A stretch of DNA of 30,249 nt from Candidatus Melainabacteria bacterium 17Bon1m (GTDB taxonomy: Bacteria > Cyanobacteriota > Vampirovibrionia > Obscuribacterales > Obscuribacteraceae), in assembly GCA_032128875.1 (NCBI GenBank), contig JAVLKG010000023.1:1-30249 (forward strand). The letters run 5' to 3'. The translations under genes were made by a program, and so were the position numbers. How positions within the stretch are numbered: position 1 is the first letter of the stretch; the number at the start of each line of letters is the position of its first letter. Positions 12,373 to 27,699 of this stretch are shown here, piece by piece. Under the pieces are notes generated by a model. The model was not told where the DNA came from. It saw only the letters and a program-made list of their open reading frames with translations, and did no database searches.

Positions 12373-12648
12373 CTGCAGGGGCGCTGCCATGCATCGCCCG
12401 GTCGGCGTCGACCCTACAGCAAAAGAAAGCCTTTGAGGAAGTCAATGTAAGTTTGCGTCTCTGGCGAGCGCCTGAGTGGCGATGAGGAGGTTGAGGCGTG
12501 CACGTGTGCATATGCCTACGCCTCTTCCGGCGGCTCAGGTGTCAGGGGTTTTGGACTGCTGAGGCGGTAAAACGAAGAAAAGGCAAAGGTTAGTCGGCGC
12601 CCCTGCGTTCTGCGAGTAAACTCGCTAGAACTAAGGGAGCGTTTACTA

Positions 12649-13749: not shown

Positions 13750-13777
13750 AGCGCTCCTGCATAAGGTGCGCTTTTTT
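13750..13777 (+). terminator. Probable intrinsic terminator downstream of iaaA
   Basis: AGCGCTCCT-GCATA-AGGTGCGCT followed by TTTTT. Confidence 0.45.
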
Positions 13778-13885
13778 CGTGCGCGTGGGCGAGCGAGTTT
13801 GGTGTGCTTCAGAGGACGTGCGGAAGCTACTTCAATCCGCGGCGTTCGCTTCGTGCGATCAGCTGCTAGAAAACGGAGACTGGTT

Positions 13886-15667
13886 ATGAATCAGCCCAAG
13901 ACTTCAATGTGGCGAAAGATCTTCGCCCTCTGCGCACCGTATTGGTTCGCGAACGATAAGCAGGCGGTTCCGCTGCCGTTTATCGGTTCTGTCAATGTGC
14001 CGGCCAAGTGGGTGGGGCGCTCTCTGCTCGCCCTCCTGCTCGTCGGTCTCGTCAGCATCAACTACCTCAACGTGGGTCTGAACTTCGCGTGGGGTGACAT
14101 CATGAACTATCTGCAGGATTTCGCCGCCAACCAGGCGACGGACCCTGCCAAGGCGCAAGCCGCGAAAGATGGCTTCATGGCGGCGATTTTCGGCATCGGT
14201 AAGGTCTTCCTTATCGGTACCTTTATCGTCGTGGCGTACCGCTGGATTCGGGCCAAGCTGCAGCTCTCGTGGCGCACTTGGATGACCAATGACTTCATGC
14301 GGCGCTACCTGAACTCCGACGGCGCTCACTATCGCGTCGGCAACAACGCCAGCATCGACAACCCTGACGAGCGAATCCATCAGGACATCGACGCGGTTGT
14401 CGCCCAGACCCTCGGTCTGGCACTGACCTTCATCGATTCCGTGGTGACGCTGATCTCGTTCTCGGCGGTCCTCTGGGCCATCTCGCAGAACCTGACCTAC
14501 ATCGTCGTCGGCTACTCGCTGGTCGGCTCGCTGCTCATCCTGCTGTTCGGTCGTCGCCTCGTCGCGCTGAACTTCATGCAGCTCAAGCTGGAAGCGGACT
14601 TCCGATACTCGCTCATCCACGTTCGTAACCACACCGAAGCGATTCGCTTCTACCGTGGTGAAGAGCGCGAGCTGGGCACCGTCAAGGGCCGCTTCGGTCA
14701 GGCTGTGGAAAACAACCACAAGCTGATCAACTGGACCGCCAACGTCGGCTTCTTCCAGACCGCCTTCGACTACTTCGTCACCATCATCCCGTACCTGATC
14801 ATCGCGCCGCTCTTCTTCGCCGGCGCCGCCAAGCTGGGCACGTTCCAGCAGGCGTCGATGGCTTTCGGCCAGATTCTTGGCTCGCTCGCCATCGTGGTCA
14901 CGTCGTTCCAGTCGCTTGCGCAGTACGCTGCGAATATCAACCGTCTGGGTGGCTTCGACGAAGCCCTGAAGGAGAAGCACAACGCCGCCGGCAAGCCGAC
15001 CATCAAGACGGTCGTCGAGCCGCGCATCGAGATGAAGGACATGACCCTTCAGACTCCGGACTACGCCCGCACTCTGATCGCCGGCCTCAACCTGGCGGTC
15101 AAGGAAGGCACCGGCGTCATCGTCATGGGTCGCTCGGGCGTGGGCAAGAGCTCGCTTCTGCGCGGTCTTGCCGGTCTCTGGGACAGCGGCACCGGCACCA
15201 TCGTGCACCCGGAACTGGGCGACATGATGTTCTTGCCGCAGACGCCGTACATGCTGCTCGGCAGTCTGCGTGAGCAGTTCACGTACCCGCGTTCCAACGC
15301 CACCGACGCTGAAATCGCGGCGATGGCTGTGAAGGTCGGTCTGCCCGAGAACTTCATCGCTCTCAAGGGCGGTCTCGATGCCGAGGCTAAGGGCCTGTCG
15401 CTGGGCGAACAGCAGCGTGTCGCGTTCGCGCGACTGCTCCTGGCGCGTCCGCGCTACGCCATCCTCGACGAGGCCACCAGCGCGCTCGATATCCCGCTGG
15501 AAGAGCGTCTCTACACGCTGCTGCGCAACTCGGGCGTCACCTTCATCAGCGTCGGTCACCGCCCGTCGGTGATCAAGTTCCATGACGGCGTCCTCACCCT
15601 CACCGGTGAAGGCGGCTGGACCATGGCTCCTGTGACCAAGGAGTTCATCGAGGACCACTCGAAGTAA
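13886..15667 (+). CDS. ABC transporter, fused permease/ATPase, ABCD/YddA/BacA(Rv1819c)-like
   Basis: IDNPDERIHQD, EAIRFYRGE (EAA-like), Walker A GRSGVGKS, signature LSLGEQQR, Walker B ILDEATSALD, SVGHR; GGAG before ATG 13886. Confidence 0.92.
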   Translation: MNQPKTSMWRKIFALCAPYWFANDKQAVPLPFIGSVNVPAKWVGRSLLALLLVGLVSINYLNVGLNFAWGDIMNYLQDFAANQATDPAKAQAAKDGFMAAIFGIGKVFLIGTFIVVAYRWIRAKLQLSWRTWMTNDFMRRYLNSDGAHYRVGNNASIDNPDERIHQDIDAVVAQTLGLALTFIDSVVTLISFSAVLWAISQNLTYIVVGYSLVGSLLILLFGRRLVALNFMQLKLEADFRYSLIHVRNHTEAIRFYRGEERELGTVKGRFGQAVENNHKLINWTANVGFFQTAFDYFVTIIPYLIIAPLFFAGAAKLGTFQQASMAFGQILGSLAIVVTSFQSLAQYAANINRLGGFDEALKEKHNAAGKPTIKTVVEPRIEMKDMTLQTPDYARTLIAGLNLAVKEGTGVIVMGRSGVGKSSLLRGLAGLWDSGTGTIVHPELGDMMFLPQTPYMLLGSLREQFTYPRSNATDAEIAAMAVKVGLPENFIALKGGLDAEAKGLSLGEQQRVAFARLLLARPRYAILDEATSALDIPLEERLYTLLRNSGVTFISVGHRPSVIKFHDGVLTLTGEGGWTMAPVTKEFIEDHSK

Positions 15668-15836
15668 TTCCGGTCGCTCGACTGAGCCGACTCGCTTGAT
15701 GTAAATCGAGCGGTCATCAGTGTCTGGAGTTGCCTGCCTGGGTTGCTGAAAGGCGCTCAGGCAGGCGCTTCAGGCGTTCTTCACCAAACCCGAATTTCGA
15801 CCGAAAGGTCTACAAAACCAAGTTGGAACTTCCCTA

Positions 15837-16412
15837 ATGAACAGAGGAAGACGCGAGAAAACCCTCACGGTTGCGAAGATCCTCCAGCTGCTGAAACCCG
15901 CTGGAAGCAACCCTCGCCTGGTCCTGTTTGCCGGCTTGCCTGCATCGGGCAAGAGTACGTTTTCCGACGGACTGGTCGAAGCCGGTGCCACGCGCATCAG
16001 CCTCGACGAGATCCGCAAGGAGATCTACGGCGACGCCAACATCATCGGTGACTGGAAGGTCACGCGCAAGCGCTTCGACGAGCTCTACAACGCTGCTCTG
16101 GCGGCGAAGCAGAACATCGTCCTCGACAACACTCACTTCATGCGCAAGCAGCGTGAGCGCGTTATCGAGATGGCCCGTGCCGCCGGTTACGTCGACATTC
16201 ATGTCGTCGTGATGGACGTGACGCTCGAGGAATGCCTCAAGCGAAACGCCAAGCGCGAACGCGTCGTCAAAGAGGAAATCATCCGTGACATGCACAATTG
16301 GCTGTACGGATCGCAGTTCCCCAATGACAGCGAAGGGCAAGTGACCGTGCTGGCTCCCACCGATGTGCGGACGAAGTACAAGGTGTCAGGATACGTTGCT
16401 TCGGCTGCGTAA
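15837..16412 (+). CDS. P-loop kinase, AAA_33/polynucleotide-kinase-like
   Basis: Walker A GLPASGKST, ISLDEIR (DxxR), VLDNTH, lid CLKRNAKRER; exact start uncertain. Confidence 0.85.
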   Translation: MNRGRREKTLTVAKILQLLKPAGSNPRLVLFAGLPASGKSTFSDGLVEAGATRISLDEIRKEIYGDANIIGDWKVTRKRFDELYNAALAAKQNIVLDNTHFMRKQRERVIEMARAAGYVDIHVVVMDVTLEECLKRNAKRERVVKEEIIRDMHNWLYGSQFPNDSEGQVTVLAPTDVRTKYKVSGYVASAA

Positions 16413-16430
16413 TCGCATCTTGGGTTTTTT

Positions 16431-16475
16431 AAGAAGCGCCCAGGGAGAGCAATTTCCCCGGGCGTTTTCTTTTTT
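16431..16475 (+). terminator. Intrinsic terminator after the kinase gene
   Basis: GCGCCCAGGGAGA-GCAA-TTTCCCCGGGCGT followed by TTTCTTTTTT. Confidence 0.75.
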
Positions 16476-16592
16476 GAAGCATTTGATACTGTGTCGTGTA
16501 GTAACAGGTCAATGCCATGCGTTGACCCTACATCAGTGAACTTGTACCAATTTTCTAAGCGCATTTATGGTGTTTTTTCTGGGTAAGGGCGC

Positions 16593-16770
16593 GTAACAAA
16601 AATCTAGAAAAACATTACAATGCCTACTGTTTGAGAGCTCCGTCATTCTGTACCTTTTTTGCGATTTCGTTATGCGATTTCGCGTTTGAGGTGTTAATTG
16701 GCTTTCAAGTAATAATGCTGTTGTTGCTCTCGAACTTTCAACGTGTAATAAAAATCTAGAAAACTGTTAC
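16593..16770. repeat. Two copies of a 26-bp dyad (GTAA..AAAATCTAGAAAA...TTAC), 152 bp apart
   Basis: 16593-16618 GTAACAAAAATCTAGAAAAACATTAC and 16745-16770 GTAATAAAAATCTAGAAAACTGTTAC. Confidence 0.75.
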
Positions 16771-16795
16771 ACGGAGAATCCGTCAATCTTGTGGC

Positions 16796-18433
16796 TTAGC
16801 CATTCTTGAAAAACAGAATTACGCGCAGTTCGTTTGGTTGTAGTTCGAGTTCCAAATCTTTTGCGGAAACAAACTCAGTGTGCGGTTTTGAATCGGCGCG
16901 AAGTTTCTCGATTTGCTCTCTAGTCGGATAGGTGGGAGAGCCCATGGCTTGCCACTTTCTATAAGACGAACCATGTTCTTTGTTGATCGTGTGGCAAGTG
17001 CCTTGATCGTATTGCTCTGCGTTTTTGATATCGAATTTGAACCGCCGCACTTTTCCTTCGTTTTTTTCGTTGCTCTTTTCGCCCGTATAATTCCACACTG
17101 CCAAAATGAGCCAACCATCATCTTTTTGCGTAGCCAAAACTGGCGCTGCTTCTGGTTCTACAGGCAAGCGCTTGTCGCCTAATCTTTTCAATAGATTGAA
17201 TGCGTTGAACGATGCTTTGGGAATTCCGCCTGGTGCAATAAGACCAAAGCCGCCGTAAAACGGTTTTTTATAAACGCCCTGTTCTTCAAATACATCTGAG
17301 AATGTCCAATATGCAATTTCGTCTGCCAGTCCGGCGCTTAGTTTAATGTGATTGGCTATCCAGGGCGCCATCATCTCTGAGTCTGTGACTTCGGGATGGT
17401 TAGCGAAACTCGCGTTGTATTCACTCCAGATAATTGGCAGCTCGGGTCGCGCTGAATGTTTCACTTGTTCGTGTACTTTTTTCATTGCCGCAGCCACCAT
17501 CTCATCTCGACCGATGATGCGGTTCTTGGTGGAGCGGTCTTCTGCCAGGACGTCCTTCGCGCTGTCGTCACCGTATACATGTGTAGTGACGAAGTCGACC
17601 GGCGTTTTGTTTTTAGTGCAGTACTCAATAAAACGGTCTACCCAGGCTGCCTGAGCTGTAGCCGGACCACCTACTTTAAGAAGCGGGTTGACGTTCTTCA
17701 GGGCTCGCGCAGTTGCGTCATAAAGCTCATAGTAAGTTGCTTCTTTCGGCTCACCGCCCCAGAAGTCGATATTGGGCTCGTTCCAAACTTCGAAATACCA
17801 GTTCGAAACCTCTCCGATTCCATAACGTTCGACAAGATGGTTTGCAAATGCTGAAACCAAATCCTGCCACTTCTTCATGTCTTTAGGAGGGGCGACACTT
17901 TGTTTGTACCAAAAAGCGTGTAAAAGTTCTTTGGATGCCATTTTTTTCGGCATGAAACTAAGTTCTATAAACGGGCGCACGTTTTGCGCAAGCAGCCCGT
18001 CGTAAATTTGGTCTACGTATGAGAAGTTGTAAATTGGCTTTCCATCAGGCGTTTCGTCGTAAATGCCAACTTCATCGTGAAAGATTGCGTGAAAACGAAC
18101 ATAGCGAATATCGAAGTTTTGTTTGCAGGTTTTGAGGTCCTGGCGATAACTGTCTCTGAGGCTAAGAATCGCACGCCCAGAGCCCAATATGTGTTCCCAG
18201 AAATGTGGAAATGGCTCTGACTTTTTGTCGGTGTCGATTACTACCTTTTCCGTTCTTACGACGCTTTTCGTTTTCTTCTCACTCTGTTTTTTTTCTGTGC
18301 TCGCCGCTTTTAAGTTACTCTCTGTATTCGCTTCTGCGCTTGTTGCTGGTGTTTGTGAGAGTGCGATCATCAGCGCCAATGCGCCTGTTTGTGCGCGTCT
18401 TGCCTGTTTCAAAAAAACGTGTCTGGAAAACAT
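16796..18433 (-). CDS. Secreted glycoside hydrolase family 39 (beta-xylosidase-like)
   Basis: YVRFH, YNFSYVDQIYD, PFIELSFMP, FEVWNEPN (acid/base), VGGPA, WSEYN (nucleophile), WTFSDVFEE, GGFGL; N-terminal signal peptide. Confidence 0.92.
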   Translation of the reverse strand: MFSRHVFLKQARRAQTGALALMIALSQTPATSAEANTESNLKAASTEKKQSEKKTKSVVRTEKVVIDTDKKSEPFPHFWEHILGSGRAILSLRDSYRQDLKTCKQNFDIRYVRFHAIFHDEVGIYDETPDGKPIYNFSYVDQIYDGLLAQNVRPFIELSFMPKKMASKELLHAFWYKQSVAPPKDMKKWQDLVSAFANHLVERYGIGEVSNWYFEVWNEPNIDFWGGEPKEATYYELYDATARALKNVNPLLKVGGPATAQAAWVDRFIEYCTKNKTPVDFVTTHVYGDDSAKDVLAEDRSTKNRIIGRDEMVAAAMKKVHEQVKHSARPELPIIWSEYNASFANHPEVTDSEMMAPWIANHIKLSAGLADEIAYWTFSDVFEEQGVYKKPFYGGFGLIAPGGIPKASFNAFNLLKRLGDKRLPVEPEAAPVLATQKDDGWLILAVWNYTGEKSNEKNEGKVRRFKFDIKNAEQYDQGTCHTINKEHGSSYRKWQAMGSPTYPTREQIEKLRADSKPHTEFVSAKDLELELQPNELRVILFFKNG

Positions 18434-18990
18434 AAGTCCTCTGGTCTTGCGTTCGTGATGTTCTATTGTTCACTGCCTTCAAAAGAATCGCATTAGCTAG
18501 TGCGAGGTTTTGATCTGTGCTGTTTATTTGTGATTGGTGGAAAGGCAATATTCATGAGCTTTTTCGCGAGTTAATCAAAAGCTTAGCGGTGGCTAATTTG
18601 TGCTCTTGACTTTTCCTTAGCAAAGCCAAAGGTTTGCTATTTCAATTCACATTGGGCCATTCAGTTTTCGAAAAGTGGACTGGTCTTGCGAGATGCGCCA
18701 GCGGCGAGCGTCTTGCGCCGTGATGTAGAAACGTTACGCGCTAAGCTGTTTTCATCACTTTATGTAAACGCTTGCCAAGTAGTCGGTGTTTTTGCCAGTT
18801 TGAGGAGCAACTTCATCCTTCACCTTCGATAAATCGCGCACAACCTCACAAGACAGCCCCACACAACCACACCGGTTACCTGTCTCCATCTTCATGATGG
18901 TATGTGAGCACGTGTATGCGAAAACGAGGTCTGGATCGAGGTTTTCTTCAACCACCGTCAAACGTGACACACGTAGAAGGAAGCATAGCT

Positions 18991-19305
18991 ATGCTCGTAT
19001 CCGCATTCGGGTTCTTCAAGATCCTCTACCTGATCGGCGCCATTGCGTTCGGTGTGGACATCTACAATTTCCTCATCAAGCGCGGCATGACCGGACTCAA
19101 GGCGTTCTTCAACACGCTGCTCGCCGTCGTCATCCTCTGCGCCATCGTCGAATTCCCGCTCGGCTTCATCGTGACGATCCCCGCGGTCGCCTACACCGTT
19201 GCCGGCCTCGCGGTCATTCTCATCGGCCGCGCCGTCTGGAAGCTGTTCCGCCTCATCAACGGCGACGGCAAGTCCAACAACACCACCACGCCTCCGAAGA
19301 GCTGA
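18991..19305 (+). CDS. Small membrane protein (about 3 TM segments)
   Basis: Hydrophobic segments; strong C/G third-position bias; AAGGAAG before ATG 18991. Confidence 0.75.
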   Translation: MLVSAFGFFKILYLIGAIAFGVDIYNFLIKRGMTGLKAFFNTLLAVVILCAIVEFPLGFIVTIPAVAYTVAGLAVILIGRAVWKLFRLINGDGKSNNTTTPPKS

Positions 19306-19503
19306 CGCCGACGGCGGTGGCTCTAAGCGAATTCCCAGCGCAGAAAGCGCTCTCGCTCAGCCACCGCTGAGGTGCCTGAAGTAAAGCTCGGTTCGCTGAA
19401 TCTCTTGCTTGGGTTCAGCATCAAAACGCCTGGTGCGAAGACTGGCGATGCGTTCGCAGCTTCCACCAGGTTCGTGAAACCCAGACTCAGAAGGAATTCC
19501 AAC

Positions 19504-19950
19504 ATGTCTTTCCTCGACAAACTCCGTGCCGGTGCCGCCTCCGTCAACGCCGACCTGACCCGCCGCGTGGGCCGCTTCAAGAACAGCACGTTCCTGCAGG
19601 CCGCCATGGCCGCCTCCGCGCTCATCGTCGCGGCCGACGGCAAGGTCCAGGACTCCGAAGTGGAGGCCACCTCCGAGTTCATCAATTCGCACCCGGCGCT
19701 CGCCTGCTTCGAGCCCGGCGAGAAGGCCAAGCTCTTCCAGGACTACGTCGTGAAGGCCCAGGGCGCCATGACGAAGATCGAGCTCAACGGCCTCATCGCC
19801 AAGGCGAAGGGCAATGCCGAGATGGCCACCACGCTCATGGAGCTGGTGCTCGCTCTCGCCGCCTCGGATGGCGATTTCGCCGACTCCGAGAAGGCCGTTG
19901 CTCGCAAGATCGCGACCAACCTCGGCCTGAACCCCGCGGACTACGTCTAA
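19504..19950 (+). CDS. terB: TerB-family (tellurite resistance/stress response) protein
   Basis: KNSTFLQAAMAASALIVAADGKVQDSE and LAASDGDFADSEKAVARKIA..LGL, the duplicated ADG/SDG..E motifs of TerB; AAGGA before ATG 19504. Confidence 0.85.
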   Translation: MSFLDKLRAGAASVNADLTRRVGRFKNSTFLQAAMAASALIVAADGKVQDSEVEATSEFINSHPALACFEPGEKAKLFQDYVVKAQGAMTKIELNGLIAKAKGNAEMATTLMELVLALAASDGDFADSEKAVARKIATNLGLNPADYV

Positions 19951-20102
19951 GTCGCCGGCGGCTCCTGCCGCAAGTGACTGACGGAACAAAGACGGTGGGG
20001 GCATTCGCTCCCACCGCCTGAGTGCTTCGGTGTTCTAGCCGAGCGGAGGCCGGGCGCAAGTGCACAATCCCGTGTACTTGAACGGAAACCGCAAGGGTAA
20101 AG

Positions 20103-20423
20103 ATGACCAAGCAAGAAATAATGGATGAAGAAGCGCGCCTCAGGGAGCGCTACGGAAACCTCGTGGATGAGGTGTCCGCCATCATGTTCCGGCATGACAC
20201 CGAAGGGCTGGCCAAGTTCGGCTGCCCCGACGATGAATACATGCCGGAGGTGCGCCGCGTGCTCCAGCAACTGGACACGGTGAAGAGCGCTGATGACATG
20301 CGCAACCTGGTCAGCCGCGTGTTCGCTGAGATGTTCGACGAGGCGCTCGACGCCACGAACGAACAGCTCAACGCACTGGCTGATGACGTGTACGCGCAAG
20401 TGACCAGCGCTACCGCGCGGTAA
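20103..20423 (+). CDS. Small acidic helical protein, possibly DUF1871/YugE-like
   Basis: HDTEGL....PDDEYMPEV resembles the D.xG...DEY..E pattern; codon bias like terB; followed by a terminator. The family call is tentative. Confidence 0.65.
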   Translation: MTKQEIMDEEARLRERYGNLVDEVSAIMFRHDTEGLAKFGCPDDEYMPEVRRVLQQLDTVKSADDMRNLVSRVFAEMFDEALDATNEQLNALADDVYAQVTSATAR

Positions 20424-20429
20424 CCCCCT

Positions 20430-20481
20430 GGGGGCTGTGTCGCAGCATTCACCTGCTGGCGCCGCAGCCCTCTTGTTTTTT
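20430..20481 (+). terminator. Intrinsic terminator closing the terB cluster
   Basis: GGGGGCTGTGTCGCAGCA-TTCACC-TGCTGGCGCCGCAGCCCTC then TTGTTTTTT. Confidence 0.65.
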
Positions 20482-20614
20482 GCTGTCCGAAAACGACAAA
20501 AGATAGTAGAAGGTGGTGTTTTTAAACAGCTCTAGATAAGTAAAACTGATCGGCGGCTGTCAGTTGTTCTCATGGACAGCATCGAACACACTTGCGTGGG
20601 TTGCGCTCTATGTT

Positions 20615-21478: not shown

Positions 21479-21715
21479 GTCTTAGCTCCTGGGGTGACGA
21501 GATTCGAAATCTCGCATAGGTGGGGAAGCCCTATTAGAGCGGTTTTGAATAAGTTTTCTGTGGAGGAATTGAAGACATTGTGGCAGCGTAGTCTTACGCC
21601 GTCATTGGGGAAAATACGTAGGCGTGGATTAAATGATGCAACTACGCCATGTAGCATGAATGGTGAAAAACAAAGGAGAGCGAGGTTTTGATACCCCACT
21701 CTCCAATGAATTTGG

Positions 21716-22108
21716 TTATTTATTCGGCGTGGAGTCGTCGTCCTTGTTCTTCGGAGTCTTGTTCTTGGGGTCGAAGAATCGGATCATGCGCCACATTTCG
21801 ACGCCAAAACCCAAACCGCCCAGAAGAAGCATGAAAGTCATCGACCACAACCCGCCGCCCAAAAGCGAACCGATCCAGTTGCCGATCCATCCAAAGACGA
21901 GCGCAGAAATCACGAGCGTGTAGGCAAACTGCGAGCCTACAAGCATCCTGTTTCTGTTCTTGCGCTCTTCTTCCGGGTCCGGCTTCTTCGGCTCGGTGGG
22001 CGTCTTGCCTGCATTCTGCAAGTCTTGCAGTTCCGGAAGGTCTTTTAGCTCCTCCGGCAACTCAGGCAAATCCAGGTCGGGTTTATCATTCTTGTTATCG
22101 TCCGCCAT
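21716..22108 (-). CDS. AtpZ/AtpI-family (ATPase_gene1-like) two-TM membrane protein
   Basis: GSQFAYTLVISALVFGWIGNWIGSLLG...W...MLLLGGLGFGVEMWRMIR matches the two-helix Gly pattern of this family; charged N-terminal tail. Confidence 0.7.
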   Translation of the reverse strand: MADDNKNDKPDLDLPELPEELKDLPELQDLQNAGKTPTEPKKPDPEEERKNRNRMLVGSQFAYTLVISALVFGWIGNWIGSLLGGGLWSMTFMLLLGGLGFGVEMWRMIRFFDPKNKTPKNKDDDSTPNK

Positions 22109-22132
22109 GGCGGTTCCCTTTTCTCATTCAAT

Positions 22133-22181
22133 GGGAGCGCATTAACTGCGTTCCGCATAGGGAGCGCACTGTGTGCGTTCC
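22133..22181. repeat. Tandem pair of 22-bp REP-like hairpins
   Basis: GGGAGCGCA-TTAAC-TGCGTTCC (22133-22154) and GGGAGCGCA-CTGTG-TGCGTTCC (22160-22181). Confidence 0.7.
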
Positions 22182-22269
22182 TCGTGGTGCTGCGAAGATC
22201 CCGCGGTGATGTTGTGCATCGCTGATAGCAGTTTCTCCGCAGCCTGTGGATTTGAGATTTAGAACGAAA

Positions 22270-23013
22270 TCAGCTCTGCGCGTCGGTCGCGAAAAGCTTG
22301 CGCGCAGCTTCGATGGCGGCGGTGCGCTCGGCTTCGGCCGGTTGCATCACTTCCATGAGGCGCTGCTTGGCTGCGGCGGTGTCAGCGATGAAACGCTGCA
22401 CTGCCGTCTGCACGAGTTCGTCGTGCGTTTGCTGGTTGATGTCGCCGCTGAGCAACTTGTTGGATGCGTCGATGCGAGCGGTTTCCAGACGAGCCTGGTC
22501 GGGCTCGATTTCGTTTTCGAAGCGTTCGGTCGCTGGGCCTGCCTTGGCGAAAAACGCCTGGTCGGCGGCTTCGACAGCGGTGGCGAAGTCGGCTTCTTTG
22601 GTGTCGGCAGCAGTCGTGTCGCCGGCGTCGCCTGGAGCAGGGCACTGCTCAGTCAGGCTGCGCTCATAGAGCGACTGGAAAAGCTGCCGGAACTCGGGGT
22701 AGGGGCGCGCACCAGCCTGTCGGCTCAGTTCGTTGCCGCAGTGATAGGTGGTGATCAGGGGGACTGAGCGTCCGCCCATCTCGAAGAAACGCTCCTGGTG
22801 GTCAGCGACGTTGACCGTCACGACCTTCACCTTGCCGTCGTATTCCTCAGCGAGTTTGTCGAGGAACGGTTTGATCATGCGGCAGGGTGCGCATGTGGGC
22901 GAATAGAAGTCGACGACGACTGGAATCGGTGATTCCAGGACCTCGCTTTGGAAGGTCGCGTCAGTCGCTTCCACAAGCCTGCTATGCGAGCCTGAGGTAT
23001 TTTGACCGGACAT
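22270..23013 (-). CDS. Thioredoxin domain (CAPC) with long Ala-rich helical C-terminal extension
   Basis: TDATFQSEVLESPIPVVVDFYSPTCAPCRMIKP, VKVVTVNV, RSVP; GAGG RBS. Confidence 0.85.
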   Translation of the reverse strand: MSGQNTSGSHSRLVEATDATFQSEVLESPIPVVVDFYSPTCAPCRMIKPFLDKLAEEYDGKVKVVTVNVADHQERFFEMGGRSVPLITTYHCGNELSRQAGARPYPEFRQLFQSLYERSLTEQCPAPGDAGDTTAADTKEADFATAVEAADQAFFAKAGPATERFENEIEPDQARLETARIDASNKLLSGDINQQTHDELVQTAVQRFIADTAAAKQRLMEVMQPAEAERTAAIEAARKLFATDAQS

Positions 23014-23166
23014 GTAGTTTTTCCTCTCGAGTTTTTGGAAAATTCCGGACTATTGAAATTTAGCCTGCAGGGGCGCGTTTGCAACCCCTGCAAGCTGGTG
23101 AAAGAAGCGAACAGCGTAGAAGCTGGGACAGCTTCATGTTCGAGAACCGCTGCTCGAGAGACTTCC

Positions 23167-23634
23167 TTAGCGGAAGTTTTTGTGACGCGGCGGCACCGGA
23201 TCCGGTTCGCGCCCAGGAGGCACCACCGGCGGTATCGTGCCGGGGTTGGGTCCTGCGCCGGGCGGCGGAGGCGTGTTGGGTCCGGGCTCGTAGATGGGCT
23301 GCACGGGCGGCGTCGGCACGATCGGCGCCGGCGGCGTGTAGGGCGGCCGCGGCGGGCGCGGAGTGTGCGTATTGTCGATATTGGCAGCAGTAGCGGACAG
23401 CTTCTGCGCTTCGGCATGCAGCTCGACGTTCCAACCGGAACCTTCGAACCGCCCGATCACAGCGTTCACCACTTCAAGGCTGACGCCTGCGCAGGGAACT
23501 TCGATGGGGACTTCATTGGCATTGGGCGCCGATTCGATCGCTTCGACAACGGCGAAGTACAGGGCGTTGACCGCCTCCCTCTTCGCACGACGCTTCTGAT
23601 CATGATGGCCCTTGGGCCGCTTATGTTCTGACAT
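23167..23634 (-). CDS. Hypothetical protein with proline-rich C-terminus
   Basis: AAGGAG RBS; codon bias matches neighbours; PRPPRPPYTPPAP... tail. Confidence 0.72.
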   Translation of the reverse strand: MSEHKRPKGHHDQKRRAKREAVNALYFAVVEAIESAPNANEVPIEVPCAGVSLEVVNAVIGRFEGSGWNVELHAEAQKLSATAANIDNTHTPRPPRPPYTPPAPIVPTPPVQPIYEPGPNTPPPPGAGPNPGTIPPVVPPGREPDPVPPRHKNFR

Positions 23635-23791
23635 AGTGTTCTCCTTACAGTGCCCTCATTCGCGAGAGCATGCGTGCAAGCCGCCATTACCGGTCAGGCG
23701 AATTGCACTCGTTGGCTGATACATTGCGTGCACGAACACCGGCTAGATCCAATGCTGTCCGTACACACCTGCTGCGATATCAAATCCAGGA

Positions 23792-24241
23792 TTAATGAAC
23801 CTGGTCGAATAGCTGCTTTAGCCGCAAGCGGCTGCCGAAGCCATCGATGGGGAAATACTGCGCTCCGTCACCTGCCGCCATGCCGCGCATGTCTGGCGGT
23901 GTCGGAGTGATGAGCACTCCGGACGGTGTGCCGTGCACACCCAGAATGCTTTCAGCATCGGGAACGTCCTCGACAAACACGCGCAAGAACTTGATCTTGC
24001 CGCGATATTCGGAGGCCAGTTCGGCGACGATTTTGTGATTCTCGGCGCATTCTACCGAGGTGTGGCTCACAACTTCGACGTAAATCGGAGTTTGAGCGTT
24101 GGCTAATTCGCTGGTGAGCTCTTGCTTTCCGACGGTCGTCACATCGATGTCGGAGTGGAAATTCTCAACCAGGAATGACAGCGGCAAGAGAACCACTGCC
24201 ATTAGCACGAGGGCAAGCAGATACTGCTTTCCAGTTAGCAT
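23792..24241 (-). CDS. Membrane-anchored or exported thioredoxin-like protein with SxxC site
   Basis: N-terminal hydrophobic helix; PIYVEVVSHTSVEC, LASEYRGKIKFLRV, GVHGTP; start at ATG 24241 inferred from AAGGA spacing (alternative GTG 24256). Confidence 0.75.
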   Translation of the reverse strand: MLTGKQYLLALVLMAVVLLPLSFLVENFHSDIDVTTVGKQELTSELANAQTPIYVEVVSHTSVECAENHKIVAELASEYRGKIKFLRVFVEDVPDAESILGVHGTPSGVLITPTPPDMRGMAAGDGAQYFPIDGFGSRLRLKQLFDQVH

Positions 24242-24813
24242 AAGCATTTCCTTCACTTCCGCTGCAGGGTACTCGCCGTTGTTTTTCTCTCGGTGATATG
24301 CGGAGCATATCGATTTGTGGATGCGGCTGTCTTGTACGTTGCAGCAGAGATCGAGTCAGGGTCTGAGTCTTCGGAACACGCGTTCAGCACCGGCACAATT
24401 AGCGGTCACGATTCATTCACCTGGAAGGAGGCGAAAGAGACATGAGCGCTATGGGGGAAACGTGTGCGGGGTGTGGGTTAGAAGCTGTTTTTGAAAGAAG
24501 TGAACGCGTGGAAGATCGAACGGAGCCTATAAAACCTGAGCTGTGAAAAGCGAGCCTGATAAATAACAACTTCACACAAAAGCGGCTTTTTGAGGAAGTT
24601 TTAAACGCGATGTTGTCAGTAGTTCTTATCCATGCGCGCAGAATCGCGCAACAGTTCGTTTTTTCTTAACAGGCTCTGCGCGAGGGTTTCGCAATTTCTT
24701 AATGCACTCTACGCTAAGAACGAGCGCAGTAAGAATTCTGAGAAAAACCATCCGAGGCTTGTCGAACTTCAATTCGACTGCCGTTCAATCGGTCTGCGAG
24801 TCTCTGGAAACTG

Positions 24814-25239
24814 TTATTTCTTGATCGGCATAACGCGCAAATTATGGATGCCACAACCTGCAGCTGCGTCCATGACTGCGACTACGAATTTTTGTCTGGC
24901 ATCGCCTTCAGCAGTAAGCATGAGCGGAATGTCTGTTTTTCCGGCTTTCGCTTGCTCGGCTTTGATCACGGTGGAAACACCGGCCGAATCAGGTGGATTT
25001 GCAGGCACGTTGTTAATGCGAATTTGTCCTGCGGCTGTAACTTCGACGTTCAGCTTCGGTCCTTTGTCGTCGTCCTTCGCCTTAGATGGTCCGGCACTTG
25101 GCGGATCGACCTTCAGAACGGTCTGATTGACGAGCGGTGCAATCAGAATCATGATGACCAGAAGCACGAGAAACACGTCAGTAAGCGGGGTTACGTTGAT
25201 TTCTGTGAATGATTCACCGGCGCGACCACCTATTGCCAT
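24814..25239 (-). CDS. exbD: ExbD/TolR family biopolymer transport protein
   Basis: EINVTPLTDVFLVLLVIMIL with the conserved TM Asp; VVAVMDAA..G C-terminal motif; AAGGAGG RBS. Confidence 0.9.
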   Translation of the reverse strand: MAIGGRAGESFTEINVTPLTDVFLVLLVIMILIAPLVNQTVLKVDPPSAGPSKAKDDDKGPKLNVEVTAAGQIRINNVPANPPDSAGVSTVIKAEQAKAGKTDIPLMLTAEGDARQKFVVAVMDAAAGCGIHNLRVMPIKK

Positions 25240-25759
25240 GTGAACAGCCTCCTTACCCGGGCGTCGTGTTCTAGTTTTGAGGACCAGATTTCTAGTCTAA
25301 GGTCATATAGTACCTGCAAGTGGCAGGGCGTGCCACATGGTAAACCCTGACCTTCACACAAGGCAGTTTTCGCCCGCTAGCATAGCCGCGCTAGATCCTG
25401 GTTCTAGCGGGTTTTCGGGCTTTAGTATTAGAAATTTACTCGCCTGCGCGAGCGTAGCGATATAAGCCTTAGCTAAGACTATGAGTCTGTGGGCTTCTAA
25501 CGGTTTTAGCCTATTGAGTTTGTCAAGTGGGTCTTGTTAGGCTCAAATCCCATTTCTTTTCAATTCTCAGGAGCTGAAAACACAGACTAGCGCGATAAAT
25601 TACCTATTCGGTTCTTTACTGATTCACCTTGATGGGGGTGAAGCGAACACACCGGATGTGTTCTCGCATAGACATTCTGTGGCTTTTCTCCTCGATTGGT
25701 TCAGACGTTTGCGCTGACCACATTTAGCCAGGCGTTTTCGCCAAGAACTAGGAGTTACT

Positions 25760-26899
25760 ATGACCAACATGAACAAGATCAATGGCCTCTGGGTACCCCA
25801 GCACGCCAACGTCGTAAATCACACACACTTGGACTGCGTCCTGCGTCACAGCGATGTGGTGCGGCTCGCCGCCCAGGCCGGTTTCGACACCTTCAAGGAG
25901 CCGTTTCCGAAGCTGACCGAAGACCTCTGGCGCACCGCCGAGCTCCTCGCCAAGACCGGCACCGTGAAGGACCGCGCCCTGATTGCCCGGCTGCAGCGCC
26001 GTGCCGTTTCCGCCTACCGCGAAGACTGCTTCGCTCGTGGCGGCGACCTGACGGCATACGTGGCTGCCATCGCCAATCAGCTCGTTCCGCTCATGCAGAC
26101 GGTCGAGAACATCAAGCTCTTCACCAAGCACTACATCGAAGACCTCGTCGCCGACCACACCATCGGTGCACAGATTCGCTTCGCCCCGCACCTGCACATC
26201 TTCGGCGGTCTCTCGCTCGAAGCTGTCGTCGAGGCGGTTGCCGAAGTGACTGCCAACGCGCCCATTCCGATCAAGCTCATCCTCTGCGCCCTGCGTGGAC
26301 CGGACGGTGAAGCGAAGCGGAAGGAAGCGAGGGAAGTCGCGGACCTCTGCATCAAGTACAGCGCCGAAGTCGGTGCCATGGACCTCGCGGGTGCCGAAGC
26401 CCTTTGGGGCGGCGTTCCGCAGTGGTGGTGGCTCGAAGCCCTGCGCGCGCGCGAGGCTTCCGGCGGCGAGTGCGGCATTACGCTGCACCTGGGCGAAGTT
26501 CAGCCGGCCACGCCGGAGGAAATCGCTCTGCTGAAGGAGAACGGCGTGTTCGTCGTTGGGCACTTCCTGCACAACGATGACCCCGACCTGTATCAGGAGT
26601 GCTGCCCCCACTCGAACCTGACGCTGCATGCTCACCCGAGCCTGCAGAGCGGCCAGTTCCGCTGCCATTCCATTGGGCGTAAGCTCAAGGAAAAGCAGCA
26701 CGTCATGCTCTCCACTGACGGCACGACCCTGATCAAGACCAGCATGCGCATGCAGATGTCCCTCGGGCGTCGCGCTTTCGGCTGGACTGGCAAGGACCTG
26801 CATCAGCTGAGCCTGAACGCCATCAACGGCGGCTTCTACAACGAGGCCGACAAGAAGAACATGCGCAAGCAGCTCAAGCTGGCGTATGGCGCGAAGTAA
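25760..26899 (+). CDS. Adenosine deaminase-like metallo-amidohydrolase (divergent)
   Basis: HTHLD, IRFAP, DLAGAE, TLHLGE, VGH, ECCPHSN, LSTD match the ADA-family motifs in order; AGGAG RBS. Confidence 0.85.
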   Translation: MTNMNKINGLWVPQHANVVNHTHLDCVLRHSDVVRLAAQAGFDTFKEPFPKLTEDLWRTAELLAKTGTVKDRALIARLQRRAVSAYREDCFARGGDLTAYVAAIANQLVPLMQTVENIKLFTKHYIEDLVADHTIGAQIRFAPHLHIFGGLSLEAVVEAVAEVTANAPIPIKLILCALRGPDGEAKRKEAREVADLCIKYSAEVGAMDLAGAEALWGGVPQWWWLEALRAREASGGECGITLHLGEVQPATPEEIALLKENGVFVVGHFLHNDDPDLYQECCPHSNLTLHAHPSLQSGQFRCHSIGRKLKEKQHVMLSTDGTTLIKTSMRMQMSLGRRAFGWTGKDLHQLSLNAINGGFYNEADKKNMRKQLKLAYGAK

Positions 26900-27218
26900 G
26901 GCTTAAGGTTCCAGTCGCAAGACTAGAATTTTAGGCTAGCTTCAACCCAGTCGCGTTGGGCAGTTCATTAGCATCTTCACGCTGTGAGGTGCTGCTGAAC
27001 TGTCCATCTGCTCTTTGGCAGGCACGCTCTCGGGCGTGTCGCGACAGGGGATTTCCTCCAGTCGTGCGCGTAATTCTGTGCGTACGACTTCAGCGTGTCG
27101 ACTCCACCGGTGGTGCTAGGGAGTCGGGCACGGTCAGTGTGTGCAGCGTCGGATACGTTGCACCAGGTTGCTTCGAGTGTCCACTGCTCTCGAAGACACA
27201 AACACGGAGCGTAAAAAC

Positions 27219-27494
27219 ATGAAATTGGTCAACAGCCTCGAAATCATCGGTGAACCCACTCGCGTCGACCAGCAGGTCGCCTGTCCCGGATGCAGCGCTC
27301 GCGCGATGCTCTTCAACGACGGGTCGGTCCTCTGCATCGCCGAGGGCGGCAAGTGCTATGCGCCGGAGCCGACCGACGGAGAGAAGTGGCAGATGCGCCA
27401 GGAGTTCGACGCGAAGAACGGCATCACGCCTTCCGACCGTCTGCTCATCCCGGCTCGCCTGCAGAGCGAACTCGCCGAAAGCCTGCAGGACTAA
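27219..27494 (+). CDS. Small Cys-containing (putative zinc-ribbon) protein
   Basis: GGAG RBS and ATG 27219; CPGC...C-x6-C; strong C/G third-position bias. Confidence 0.7.
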   Translation: MKLVNSLEIIGEPTRVDQQVACPGCSARAMLFNDGSVLCIAEGGKCYAPEPTDGEKWQMRQEFDAKNGITPSDRLLIPARLQSELAESLQD

Positions 27495-27653
27495 CAGTTC
27501 GGTATCAATCCACCGAAGACTTGCGCAAGGATCGTCCTAGGCGTTTCATCGTCTAACAAGCCCTATCAGCACTTCACGGCAGCTCTTGTGAAGTCCTGTT
27601 GAGCTTGAGTATCTCGCCTGGTTTCCGGTAGATCGAGAATCCAAACTGTTTTC

Positions 27654-27699
27654 GAGAGCGGCGGGTGTAATCACCTGATTCCCCGCCGCTCTCATTTTT
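27654..27699 (+). terminator. Intrinsic terminator closing the deaminase cluster
   Basis: GAGAGCGGCGGG / CCCGCCGCTCTC 12-bp perfect stem followed by ATTTTT. Confidence 0.7.

Follow-up and report, generated by a model that had tools for sequence, protein, structure and literature searches.

Interleaved GC-rich and ordinary genes in a Candidatus Melainabacteria genome: possible old, imported operons with hairpin-rich spacers

The window analysed here, a stretch of 30,249 nt from Candidatus Melainabacteria bacterium 17Bon1m, carries genes of two compositional kinds side by side. Does the GC-rich kind belong to an undescribed system, to a distinct expression programme or to a dispersed pool of acquired genes, as the original prediction had suggested?

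Two gene classes in the window and in the genome

Thirteen of the 30 called genes of the window have a GC3 of 0.71-0.85, and the TPR, SGNH, MBOAT, GH39 and SDR genes have a GC3 of 0.48-0.60, in agreement with the two interleaved classes seen by eye. Three genes (11611-12372, 12649-13647 and 23792-24256) show intermediate values (0.63-0.66), and GC along the window ranges from 0.42 to 0.65. The C/G-rich spans listed originally are confirmed as clusters, except that the first cluster also includes 1195-1737 (Table 1).

Table 1. Gene clusters, genes and folded spacers of the window
Feature	Position	Strand	GC3	Basis or remark
High-GC3 cluster 1	1195..4098	-		three genes; GC3 and Pfam/NCBIfam
FMN reductase-like gene	1195-1737	-	0.71	cluster 1
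Intercistronic spacer, two long near-perfect hairpins	1738..1842	-		z -8.73 sense, -2.90 antisense
Thioredoxin-domain protein with N-terminal extension	1843-2358	-	0.79	cluster 1
Histidine-phosphatase + prolyl-aminopeptidase fusion	2380-4098	-	0.79	cluster 1
Intermediate-GC3 gene pair	11611..13647	+		upstream of and co-oriented with cluster 2; GC3, domain matches
Glycerophosphodiester-phosphodiesterase-like gene	11611-12372	+	0.64	
Asparaginase_2 gene	12649-13647	+	0.63	
High-GC3 cluster 2	13766..16412	+		two genes; GC3 and domain matches
ABC transporter, SbmA/BacA-type membrane domain	13766-15667	+	0.81	cluster 2
Intercistronic spacer	15668..15836	+		cluster 2; z -6.64 sense, -2.81 antisense
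P-loop PNK-like kinase	15837-16412	+	0.76	cluster 2
Hairpin then T-run	16413..16500 (hairpin ~16433-16480)	+		end of cluster 2; z -3.50
GH39 glycosidase	16796..18433	-	0.48	ordinary class, between two high-GC3 clusters
High-GC3 cluster 3	18904..20423	+		three genes; GC3 and Pfam
Small membrane protein	18904-19305	+	0.78	cluster 3
Hairpin-rich spacers	19306-19504, 19951-20102	+		inside cluster 3; folding z
TerB	19372-19950	+	0.85	cluster 3; conserved part from ~19438 (residue 23)
106-aa orphan	20103-20423	+	0.79	cluster 3
Hairpin then T-run	20424..20520 (~20427-20480)	+		end of cluster 3; z -3.23
High-GC3 cluster 4	21675..24256	-		four genes and terminator-like site 21704-21675
130-aa membrane protein	21716-22108	-	0.72	cluster 4
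247-aa thioredoxin-domain protein	22270-23013	-	0.74	cluster 4
155-aa orphan	23167-23634	-	0.73	cluster 4
Thioredoxin-like gene	23792-24256	-	0.66	cluster 4
High-GC3 cluster 5	25760..27494	+		two genes; GC3 and domain matches
Adenosine-deaminase-like (ADA-like) protein	25760-26899	+	0.83	cluster 5
117-aa orphan	27141-27494	+	0.78	cluster 5

Residues 266-569 of the fusion protein match NCBIfam TIGR01249 at 483 bits (cut-off 259.75), and the full-length fusion occurs in only 4 genus records among the 80 loci kept. The TerB gene matches Pfam TerB at 57 bits (cut-off 24.4). The true start of the ABC transporter gene probably lies near 13886 rather than 13766, because congeners have stops upstream. 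The contig end is a multi-copy repeat.

Across the 7.55-Mb genome the GC3 distribution is bimodal, and two mixture components (means of 0.512 and 0.747; weights of 0.91 and 0.09) describe it better than one (BIC -12508 vs -10352). Two GC3 classes in one genome recall the isochore-like structure of grasses and vertebrates, but this is a bacterium, and its minor class makes up 9% of genes, is clustered in operons and keeps to one territory. We defined the high-GC3 class as genes with a GC3 of at least 0.68 from an ORF-based gene caller. The class comprises 481 of 6740 called genes in 210 runs (453 kb in total) inside about 1.5 Mb of mosaic contigs; its share of genes is 16-43% on C5, C7, C8, C13, C15, C18, C19 and C23 and 0-0.3% on the core contigs C1, C2, C4 and C6 (4 among 3031 genes in 3.4 Mb). 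Paralogues of the window's ABC transporter stand on other mosaic contigs, with 37-41% identity on C13, C8 and C7 and 29% on C15. The clusters are small and co-oriented, as described originally: 94% of 271 adjacent high-high pairs share an orientation, the figure for low-low pairs being 60% (419 and 2793 pairs). The alternation of the two classes takes place inside single contigs and down to single genes. The two interleaved kinds of gene are real and extend far beyond the window.

Composition is shifted everywhere and not at third positions alone, since GC1, GC2 and spacer GC are raised too. GC1/GC2/GC3 are about 0.607-0.613/0.429-0.430/0.770 in the high class and 0.552/0.414/0.511 in the remaining genes, and spacer GC is 0.564 vs 0.45-0.47. 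The high-GC3 class is compositionally foreign and has its own dinucleotide signature, with a delta* of 0.091 between its genes and core low-GC3 genes; the low-GC3 genes of the mosaic territory show a delta* of only 0.011 to the core.

The bias is not an ordinary expression bias, because ribosomal-protein genes have a GC3 of 0.44-0.65 and prefer other codons. They favour GAA, CAA, TTG, AGA, GCT and GGT, whereas in the high-GC3 class C- and G-ending codons are both increased, including GCG, ACG, CAG and GAG, which ribosomal-protein genes avoid. SD-like motifs stand upstream of 57% of 243 high-GC3 genes and 35% of 2739 low-GC3 genes, and the upstream motif search that had been proposed, here a crude k-mer test, found nothing shared beyond this stronger Shine-Dalgarno site. 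No dedicated tRNA set is found in the mosaic territory: 2 of 68 tRNA genes lie on high-GC3-rich contigs (C5 and C7), and another 18 are at unchecked positions on C3, of which just the first ~130 kb is mosaic. The only RNA-labelled sequencing runs found behave like DNA.

Folded spacers between the GC-rich genes

We compared the folding of spacers with that of shuffles, using the strand asymmetry of z-scores in place of single counts of G-U pairs. In a random 55 of the 139 high-high spacers, sense z averages -4.04 and antisense z -2.54; the corresponding means for 55 of the 1158 low-low spacers are -1.72 and -1.15 (sense z of the two groups, Mann-Whitney p=6e-7). The sense value is the lower one in 42 of the 55 high-high spacers (Wilcoxon p=4e-6), so the hairpin-packed, sense-strand spacers of the original prediction are borne out. 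Sense z in the 12 spacer pieces of the window spans -1.2 to -8.7 and is lower than antisense z in 8 of them. Sense and antisense values are -4.14, -2.29 and -3.60 against -2.89, -2.36 and -1.78 in cluster 3, and -5.15 and -4.96 against -4.12 and -3.95 in cluster 4; 26900-27040, in the cluster 5 spacer, has a sense z of -6.01.

Orthologous spacers fold strongly throughout despite turnover of sequence and length. Some within-cluster spacers are 56-68% identical beside coding sequence that is 90-97% identical, and the cluster 5 spacer varies from 264 to 514 nt among eight species. The spacer 15668..15836 is 60-68% identical to that of G007, and its seven-species alignment gives a consensus structure of 20 pairs, four of them with changes on both sides; the hairpin at ~15730-15775 is kept in all seven species compared, and a second one upstream occurs in this genome only. 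The TerB/106-aa spacers of seven species fall into two mutually unalignable groups, yet every one has a folding energy of -0.44 to -0.50 kcal/mol per nt. The sense-strand bias, the seven-species hairpin with two-sided changes and the folding kept despite turnover indicate that the hairpins behave like RNA elements, with a presumed function at the RNA level.

Known stem-loops between cistrons that affect mRNA decay or transcription termination include REP/BIME-type elements and the U-less 'I-shaped' terminators of GC-rich bacteria. The hairpins resemble such elements in being stable, intercistronic and sense-biased, with compensatory changes in one and a putative function here; unlike them, they are mostly unique sequences, two or three per spacer, with no repeat family (a shared repeat in only ~9 of 139 spacers). 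A hairpin followed by a T-run, as in terminator stem-loops, is seen by eye at three cluster ends (~16433-16480, ~20427-20480 and, on the minus strand, 21704-21675), and GC content falls sharply at 16413..16500. To that extent clusters end in a terminator as described originally; a simple terminator scan found no enrichment (28 vs 24.6 +/- 4.4 in shuffles), and 1.2% of high-GC3 genes, compared to 2.6% of low-GC3 genes, pass a strict hairpin-plus-T-run test.

Conservation and substitution within the genus

Eight of 12 congeners carry the mosaic region in synteny. Collinearity with G007 extends over the entire window and with G008 over a part, and the GC3 class of each gene is unchanged there. 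Along the collinear stretch of C7, G011 retains 60 of 60 high-GC3 genes and G007 47 of 48, compared to 115 of 168 and 76 of 132 low-GC3 genes. Since the mosaic is syntenic across congeners and its high-GC3 genes show better retention than their neighbours, the class is not a recent insertion but is old and fixed across the genus.

The synonymous rate of high-GC3 genes is about half that of their neighbours. Their synonymous p-distances between G000 and G007 are 0.06-0.42, and those of core-region C1 genes and low-GC3 neighbours are 0.37-0.58. In the window, cluster 1 is 91-92% identical to G007 at the nucleotide level and the flanking low-GC3 genes 65-79%; the p-distance to G007 is 0.06-0.10 in cluster 3, 0.24 in the gene pair 11611..13647, intermediate between the two classes, and 0.44 in the GH39 gene, like the core-region genes sampled on C1. 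Parsimony polarisation, which is approximate, gives 798 S>W and 305 W>S changes in 37 high-GC3 genes (G007 as outgroup), whose GC3 was 0.813 ancestrally and is 0.79 at present, with an estimated equilibrium (GC3*) of ~0.62; 62 low-GC3 genes have 1244 S>W and 1110 W>S changes and a GC3* of 0.47. Per site, the S>W rates in high and low genes are 0.038 vs 0.077, and the W>S rates are 0.064 vs 0.068.

Origin of the GC-rich class

Outside the genus, the ADA-like protein has best matches of 34-36% identity in 3 of 5 sister-genus genomes, a Ter C-C lyase is present in 1 of 5, and the ABC transporter reaches 46-50% identity, compared to 55-62% for a core control protein (best matches, two of five). 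For the 106-aa orphan, a search of 5.8 billion proteins gave only 24 homologues, none of them below 56% identity, and 28 viral contigs, many of 126-360 kb, encode relatives of a gp30.3-like high-GC3 gene at 48-60% identity. These distant, patchy or viral relationships argue that the class was not inherited from the family ancestor. In small samples, the delta* of the class is 0.068 to G018, 0.098 to an Acidobacteriota sample and 0.143 to G017, none of these sampled lineages being a good match as donor.

Our leading, though tentative, reading is that the high-GC3 clusters are old, fixed, compositionally foreign operons that ameliorate slowly and carry transcript-level hairpins. The operons would have been acquired from GC-richer donors before the genus radiated and then fixed, and the donors may in part have been phage- or plasmid-borne gene pools, as the phage relatives of one high-GC3 gene suggest. 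About 210 short, co-oriented, operon-like clusters would thus alternate with native-type genes (GC3 ~0.51), having kept their own expression architecture: G/C-ending codons for all amino acids, Shine-Dalgarno sites that are often strong, and long spacers between cistrons folding as stable transcript stem-loops, which may serve as terminators or attenuators or protect 3' ends. Their products would be useful in stress, redox and nucleotide functions, so that purifying selection would retain the genes and hold synonymous sites to about half the neighbours' rate, with GC3 declining only slowly towards the host level.

The amelioration of horizontally acquired genes is described by Lawrence and Ochman's model, and the clusters share with such genes an atypical composition at all codon positions and in spacers, a net flux to host composition (798 vs 305 changes) and a patchy distribution beyond the genus. 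Islands of foreign DNA tend to be where a genome varies, whereas these clusters are the most stable part of their region; they are also GC-richer and not AT-richer than the host, and limited to one territory of ~1.5 Mb. Domain-profile searches matched no integrase or transposase family in the window, as stated originally, and no tRNA flank was seen there, which together with the missing donor match counts against import. So many interleaved clusters would also imply either a great number of insertions or extensive rearrangement, which is at odds with the stable gene order across the genus. GC1 and GC2 (0.61/0.43) point to a donor of only ~58-62% GC and therefore to little fall in GC3 since uptake, which sits badly with uptake before the radiation, as neutral sites are saturated, unless decay was slowed. 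The clusters do decay more slowly than the neighbours' neutral rate, and a halved S>W rate with an equal W>S rate per site is not predicted by plain neutral amelioration.

These halved rates would also fit a separate, selected expression regime, in which codons, Shine-Dalgarno sites and hairpins are maintained for a dormancy- or stress-type state in which it would be an advantage for polycistronic mRNAs to be stable or stored and to have their 3' ends protected. Near-complete retention, frequent SD-like motifs, sense-biased folding with one covarying hairpin and a GC3 that, by GC1 and GC2, has barely decayed are consistent with it, as is the cargo: TerB, thioredoxins and FMN reductase in the window and a complete Ter cluster (GC3 0.88-0.94), Usp and MoxR-VWA elsewhere. 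We consider this regime unlikely, because codon preferences differ from those of ribosomal-protein genes, W>S shows no increase and GC is lost on balance, few tRNA genes accompany the class, the crude k-mer test gave the Shine-Dalgarno site as the sole shared upstream motif, and codon selection does not explain the GC richness of spacers.

Raised spacer GC is expected instead if clusters are still exchanged between species of the genus and enriched by GC-biased gene conversion, with exchange keeping them similar. Some later exchange is indicated by incongruent closest species pairs, found in 3 of 37 high-GC3, 3 of 18 intermediate and 0 of 60 low genes; the PNK-like gene, at a synonymous p-distance of 0.42 to G007, moves from nearest to farthest relative beside the ABC gene at 0.13. 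The low p-distances in the class and its deep/shallow divergence ratio (1.65 vs 2.21 for low-GC3 genes) point the same way. Recombination has been proposed to be linked to GC3 in bacteria (PMC4450053), and the GC3 heterogeneity independent of optimal-codon selection, the GC-enriched spacers and the incongruence confined to GC-richer genes resemble that case; the contrast here is far larger and bimodal (0.51 vs 0.75). Recombination as the source of the class is nevertheless doubtful, and slightly more so than the selected regime: there is no W>S fixation bias (S>W exceed W>S 2.6 to 1), class boundaries are sharp and lie at operon ends, divergent spacers adjoin conserved coding sequence, and 34 of the 37 high-GC3 genes agree with the species tree.

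Sister genera are GC-richer genome-wide (GC3 ~0.72 in nine 20-kb regions of G017, ~0.66 in G018 and ~0.60 in G014, with GC-richer ribosomal-protein genes too), and the GC-rich genes of G017 (GC1/GC2/GC3 0.616/0.439/0.741) match the high class. The slowly evolving class could thus be a relic of a GC-richer family ancestor, lagging while the genus drifted to 50% GC. This is improbable, because the slowest core genes, such as those for ribosomal proteins, show no lag, the core contigs hold almost no such genes, a rate ratio of ~0.5, calculated from substitution rates, is too small for 0.79 against full equilibration, and the sister genera lack close orthologues and, in G017, a similar dinucleotide signature.

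Integron-like cassette arrays without integrase (CALIN-type), promoterless ORFs each followed by a folded recombination site, would account for the co-orientation, the single structured spacer after most ORFs, the many small orphans and the presence of a Fic/Doc gene, but are very improbable: the best integron-integrase model match (88.7 bits, cut-off 265) is on a core contig, the hairpins form no attC-like family, proteins of 570-630 aa with several domains are included, and integrons are hypervariable, whereas these arrays are syntenic between species with saturated neutral sites. An assembly or binning mix of two organisms has next to no probability: G000 is a draft (estimated contamination 4.49%, contig GC 0.43 to 0.54), but single-gene alternation within contigs and the same order in other species' assemblies refute it, and depth stays flat where Logan contigs (15-17.6 kb) pass over four class boundaries; these contigs come from four runs of a single sample that may itself be the source of the window, and so are not independent.

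The original interpretation is therefore supported in part. The three results named beforehand as speaking against it (unimodal GC3, a bias like that of ribosomal-protein genes, and spacer folding no stronger than in shuffles or without strand asymmetry) did not appear. Its acquired gene pool agrees with the foreign composition and the lack of close orthologues in sister genera; the pool is not dispersed, being confined, fixed, syntenic and kept better than its neighbours. An undescribed system is not warranted, as known processes cover most observations. To us the GC-rich kind looks, tentatively, like a set of operons that were imported long ago and have become permanent, with hairpins filling their gaps, and not like a new molecular system.

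Two gene classes in the window and in the genome

The 30 genes called in the window differ widely in third-position GC (GC3). GC3 lies at 0.71-0.85 in 13 genes (high class, GC3 ≥ 0.68), at 0.63-0.66 in three (intermediate) and at 0.40-0.60 in the remainder, while GC along the window ranges from 0.42 to 0.65 at gene scale. Genes were called with a home-made ORF-and-codon-likelihood script that takes the longest ORF, yielding 6740 genes that make up 89% of the draft genome (G000; 7.55 Mb in 35 contigs, estimated 93% complete with 4.5% contamination). Because of the longest-ORF rule, starts, spacer lengths and SD counts are approximate, and some short low-GC3 ORFs may be false. The original prediction had picked out five groups of genes by eye from their C- and G-ending codons. 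GC3 of our own gene calls recovers all five, and adds the stretch 1195-1737, which had been omitted.

High-GC3 gene clusters in the window
Feature	Positions	Strand	Arrangement
High-GC3 cluster 1	1195-4098	-	co-oriented
High-GC3 cluster 2	13766-16412	+	co-oriented
High-GC3 cluster 3	18904-20423	+	co-oriented
High-GC3 cluster 4	21716-23634	-	co-oriented
High-GC3 cluster 5	25760-27494	+	co-oriented

The 13 high-class genes encode an FMN reductase-like protein, two thioredoxin-domain proteins, a histidine-phosphatase and prolyl-aminopeptidase fusion, an SbmA/BacA-type ABC transporter, a PNK-like P-loop kinase, TerB, an adenosine-deaminase-like (ADA-like) protein and five small proteins without any family. 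The full-length form of the fusion (2380-4098, minus strand) is found, among the 80 loci compared, in four genus records only, and its peptidase half alone has best matches of 59-74% identity in Bdellovibrionota, Acidobacteriota, Cyanobacteria and Gammaproteobacteria. TerB scores 57 bits against its Pfam model (cut-off 24.4), with no further Ter gene within the window, and the 106-aa orphan beside it has 24 homologues among 5.8 billion proteins, each at least 56% identical, and no relative on viral contigs. A Protein Atlas look-up with the ADA-like protein yields generic adenosine-deaminase clusters only, from several phyla. As originally stated, no integrase or transposase occurs among the Pfam and NCBIfam matches in the window, and it holds no tRNA genes or Rfam families.

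Several other features of the window were also observed. Two tandem proteins of ~150 aa at 138-1033 (plus strand) can be recognised only by a ClpX-type C4 zinc finger at the C-terminus. Upstream of the GH39 gene, the divergent spacer carries, within 16590-16775, two copies, 150 nt apart, of an AT-rich motif of ~22 nt (AAAAATCTAGAAAA..TTACA), and this spacer is not alignable with that of congener G007. A short GC-rich palindromic element at 12373-12420, with ends CTGCAGGG...CCCTACAG, has copies 78-97% identical over ~30-55 bp on many contigs of the congeners, in at least 7 of the 12, and assembly contigs from the sequencing runs end at it; it resembles a REP or MITE repeat belonging to the genus. 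The last 76 bases of the contig (30174-30249) recur at 98-100% identity at the ends of contigs C35, C3, C7, C14 and C8 and at one site in congener G011, and in the sequencing runs they open a contig of 1733 nt whose depth is 4-5 times that around it. They mark a multi-copy element at which the assembly breaks. Contig C35 carries a gene for a 738-aa Ser/Thr kinase.

The bimodality expected from the window holds genome-wide. The GC3 distribution has a trough near 0.65, with 481 of the 6740 genes at or above 0.68, and a two-component Gaussian mixture (0.512 ± 0.052, 91%; 0.747 ± 0.075, 9%) is better than a single component by ~2150 BIC units. GC3 is also bimodal inside mosaic contigs, where the classes alternate, taken alone. 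High-class genes are scarce on contigs C1 (1/1029), C2 (3/980), C4 (0/670) and C6 (0/352), abundant on C5 (92/570), C7 (105/348), C8 (113/283), C13 (46/120), C15 (18/85), C18 (16/76), C19 (25/71) and C23, the window (13/30), and restricted to one end of C3, C5 and C12. They form 210 runs of 1-10 genes each, amounting to 453 kb within a territory of ~1.48 Mb, and 94% of 271 adjacent high-high pairs are co-oriented, compared with 60% of low-low pairs. Contigs C24 (22 kb) and C26 (18 kb) gave zero closed genes with our ORF caller and may hold giant open-ended ORFs or repeats.

The high class has a GC3 of 0.77 versus 0.51 for other genes, and its GC1 and GC2 are shifted as well. Its dinucleotide-signature distance (delta*) from the host's low-GC3 genes is 0.091, whereas the territory's own low-GC3 genes cannot be told apart from the core (0.011). 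Ordinary expression bias, which the original prediction had set against a distinct programme, is ruled out by the ribosomal-protein genes. The 25 genes of the ribosomal-protein cluster on contig C10 have a GC3 of only 0.44-0.65 and prefer GAA, CAA, TTG, AGA, GCT, GGT and CGT while avoiding GCG, ACG and CAG (RSCU: GAA 1.41, CAA 1.37, TTG 1.90, AGA 1.26, GCG 0.43), whereas the high class prefers every G- or C-ending codon (GAA 0.89, CAA 0.42, TTG 0.60, AGA 0.18, GCG 1.27). The contigs richest in high-GC3 genes carry only two tRNA genes. RNA-labelled runs X1-X4 from one sample yield the window as contigs of 15-17.6 kb at flat depth over genes and spacers; these runs behave like DNA and give no information on transcription.

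Translation starts and intercistronic spacers

An SD-like motif precedes 57% of 243 high-GC3 genes versus 35% of 2739 low-GC3 genes, as approximate counts, and a crude k-mer test of upstream regions found the SD motif and GC-rich words, and nothing else. Folding was applied to 55 spacers drawn at random from the 139 co-oriented high-high ones that are 80-330 nt long, and to 55 of 1158 low-low spacers. The mean z-scores of high-high spacers are -4.04 in sense and -2.54 in antisense, compared with -1.72 and -1.15 for low-low spacers (p=6e-7 between classes), and the sense value is the lower in 42 of the 55 high-high spacers (p=4e-6). The results bear out the proposed excess of folding over shuffled controls and its strand asymmetry. 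Within the window, 12 spacer pieces have sense z-scores of -1.2 to -8.7, the sense strand being more negative in eight.

High-high spacers have a median length of 94 nt (versus 57-80) and a GC of 0.564 (versus 0.45-0.47), and each contains two or three long, near-perfect stem-loops, mostly without a U-run. The claim that clusters typically end in a terminator stands in part: three of the five window clusters close with a hairpin and T-run, but simple scans find no enrichment of terminators (28 versus 24.6 ± 4.4 in shuffles), and the internal spacer hairpins lack a U-run. In an all-versus-all comparison of the 139 spacers, made without an attC model, one palindromic family of ~55 nt occurs in about nine and the others are unique sequence. 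Members of this family (for example at G000:C8:213875-214047 and C13:66637-66849) share a core of ~20 nt that matches in both orientations, and one copy lies immediately upstream of an ABC-transporter paralogue.

Orthologous spacers from four to eight congeners fold at -0.32 to -0.54 kcal/mol per nt, with one 41-nt exception, although their lengths vary, in one case from 264 to 514 nt. Seven species retain one hairpin of the spacer that follows the ABC gene, 4 of its 20 pairs having changed in both bases, and the spacer between TerB and the 106-aa orphan exists in two mutually unalignable forms, each of them hairpin-rich. Strong folding despite this turnover of length and sequence indicates that the folding property is conserved while the sequences are replaced.

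Retention and substitution of the high class

The entire window is collinear with congener G007 at ~82% nucleotide identity, and part of it with congener G008, every gene keeping its GC3 class. The region is present in 8 of 12 congeners and wholly absent, with both classes, from G011, the nearest relative by core genes (80-88% in a core region). Contig C7 is collinear with G011 (contig C4) over 267 kb and with G007 (contig C16) over 208 kb. Here 60/60 high-GC3 genes are present in G011 and 47/48 in G007, compared with 115/168 and 76/132 low-GC3 genes, and the blocks absent from G011 consist exclusively of low- and intermediate-GC3 genes, never of the high class. Genus-wide synteny and this retention rule out recent insertion. 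A dispersed acquired gene pool, offered by the original prediction, agrees with the atypical composition (delta* 0.091) but not with a class confined to ~1.48 Mb, syntenic and retained in 60/60 cases. The locus G000:C7:20001-40000, rich in high-GC3 genes (a MoxR-VWA-DUF58 set, two S41 peptidases and a rhomboid), matches G007 and G008 at 83-98% identity over most of its length, with one 0.9-kb piece at 74%, and has no match in congeners G011, G003 or G002, indicating that large blocks of the territory are patchy within the genus.

Synonymous distance was taken as uncorrected third-position differences, counted at codons that agree in amino acid and in their first two bases. Between G000 and G007 it is mostly 0.43-0.57 in low-GC3 window genes, with two lower values of 0.28 and 0.33, and 0.37-0.58 in one 20-kb core region on contig C1; high-GC3 window genes give 0.06-0.42. 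Among 195 C7 orthologues shared with G011, it is 0.19-0.25 at GC3 < 0.60 and 0.10 at GC3 ≥ 0.75. Pooled over 133 three-way orthologues, the high class has distances of 0.122 to G011 and 0.200 to G007, compared with 0.207 and 0.418 for the low class, and its amino-acid distances are ~0.6 of the low-class value.

The direction of change on the G000 and G011 branches was polarised by three-taxon parsimony with G007 as outgroup and is therefore approximate. The high class shows 798 GC-losing (S>W) versus 305 GC-gaining (W>S) changes (2.6 to 1), with an ancestral GC3 of 0.813, a present GC3 of 0.79 and an equilibrium GC3 of ~0.62; the low class shows 1244 versus 1110 changes and an equilibrium of 0.47. 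W>S rates per W site are alike (high 0.064, low 0.068), while the S>W rate per site is halved in the high class (0.038 versus 0.077). The high class is thus losing GC, more slowly than neutral neighbours would. At the level of species, G000 and G011 are the closest pair in 60/60 low, 34/37 high and 15/18 intermediate genes, so that 6/55 high and intermediate genes are incongruent compared with 0/60 low genes. A minority of the GC-rich genes has probably been exchanged between species.

Origin and meaning of the high class

Of the 112 genes annotated in five further stretches rich in the high class, many are orphans; the others include a complete Ter cluster, a MoxR-VWA-DUF58 set, S41 peptidases and a Usp-cation-efflux fusion. 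The Ter cluster (G000:C5:117000-131000) encodes four strong TerD matches, TerC, ATPgrasp_Ter, a C-C bond lyase, StiP-PELOTA and PRTase_2-TRSP at a GC3 of 0.71-0.94, its TerD block (0.88-0.94) being the genome maximum. A fifth, weaker TerD match lies on contig C19, where 22 co-oriented high-GC3 genes, most of them orphans, follow one another in G000:C19:1-19000. These include the TerD-domain protein, a tyrosyl-tRNA synthetase gene, a T4 gp30.3 homologue, Fic, a RapZ C-terminal domain and a PD-(D/E)XK nuclease. Relatives of the gp30.3 homologue, 48-60% identical to it, occur on 28 viral contigs, of which many are 126-360 kb long.

Our best reading, held tentatively, is that the high class consists of old, compositionally foreign operons. 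They would have been taken up before the radiation of the genus, possibly in part from mobile-element gene pools, and would now be fixed and useful. We propose that their composition decays only slowly towards that of the host because synonymous sites are partly constrained, and the predicted intercistronic stem-loops would act in the transcript. Three facts sustain the rivals of this reading: GC1 and GC2 imply little fall in GC3; the S>W rate is halved while the W>S rate is not raised; and no other part of the region is as stable as the high class.

A selected expression regime, which we consider unlikely, would account for the high class being stable and for its SD sites and RNA hairpins, but would leave the GC-rich spacers, the non-ribosomal codon set and the net loss of GC unexplained. 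Somewhat more doubtful is a second, actively maintained 'expression compartment' of ~480 genus-wide stress, redox, nucleotide and orphan genes, in which G/C-ending codons, strong ribosome-binding sites and multi-hairpin RNAs might be selected because transcripts are kept stable or stored for stress or a resting state. On that view, composition would mark function instead of being a fossil of transfer. Recombination with biased gene conversion would explain both the incongruent genes and the GC-rich spacers; that recombination and GC3 are linked in bacteria is proposed in PMC4450053. This reading is likewise doubtful, and it would leave unexplained the missing W>S bias and the sharp borders at the level of operons.

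The remaining readings are largely excluded. GC3 is higher throughout in sister genera of the family (G017 ~0.72 over nine regions, ribosomal-protein genes included; G018 ~0.66; G014 ~0.60), and GC1, GC2 and GC3 of the high class are similar to those of G017 genes. A vertical relic of the family is nevertheless improbable; against it stand the distant sister-genus matches, core GC3 that does not lag and a separate dinucleotide signature (delta* to G017 of 0.143). Close sister-genus orthologues are missing for the four high-class proteins compared: the ADA-like protein has matches of 34-36% identity only, the Ter-cluster C-C lyase occurs in one of five sister-genus genomes, and the ABC transporter reaches 46-50% compared with 55-62% for a core control. 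In G013, a 58%-complete genome from the family, the stretches that match a core RND-type transporter are broken by many in-frame TGA, TAA or TAG codons on several contigs (one match has '7 TGA, 1 TAA'), which could be pseudogenes or an alternative reading of stops. Integron-like arrays are very improbable, given the missing integrase (best G000 match to TIGR02249 88.7 bits, cut-off 265) and the missing shared site family. An assembly or binning artefact is scarcely credible, being ruled out by the same gene order in congeners and by Logan contigs of 15-17.6 kb from four runs of one sample, which cross class boundaries at flat depth.

In the literature covered, on Obscuribacter GC content and horizontal transfer and on bacterial bimodal GC3, no description of the pattern was found. 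The high class shares its atypical composition and codon usage with classical horizontally acquired genomic islands. It differs from them in having no mobility-gene matches or tRNA in the window and in not varying among close relatives (60/60 and 47/48 in collinear C7). Whereas compositional islands of bacteria tend to be AT-rich, mobile and variable, the atypical class described here is GC-rich, fixed and slower-evolving than its neighbours, with its own style of translation start and intercistronic RNA. Composition-based binning, gene calling and island detection will flag ~9% of the genes as alien or as contamination. The host lineage belongs to the little-known non-photosynthetic relatives of cyanobacteria, and the genus offers a clean natural case for asking how long foreign composition can persist, whether selection holds synonymous sites and spacer structures in place, and whether interspecies exchange or biased gene conversion acts on a subset of operons.
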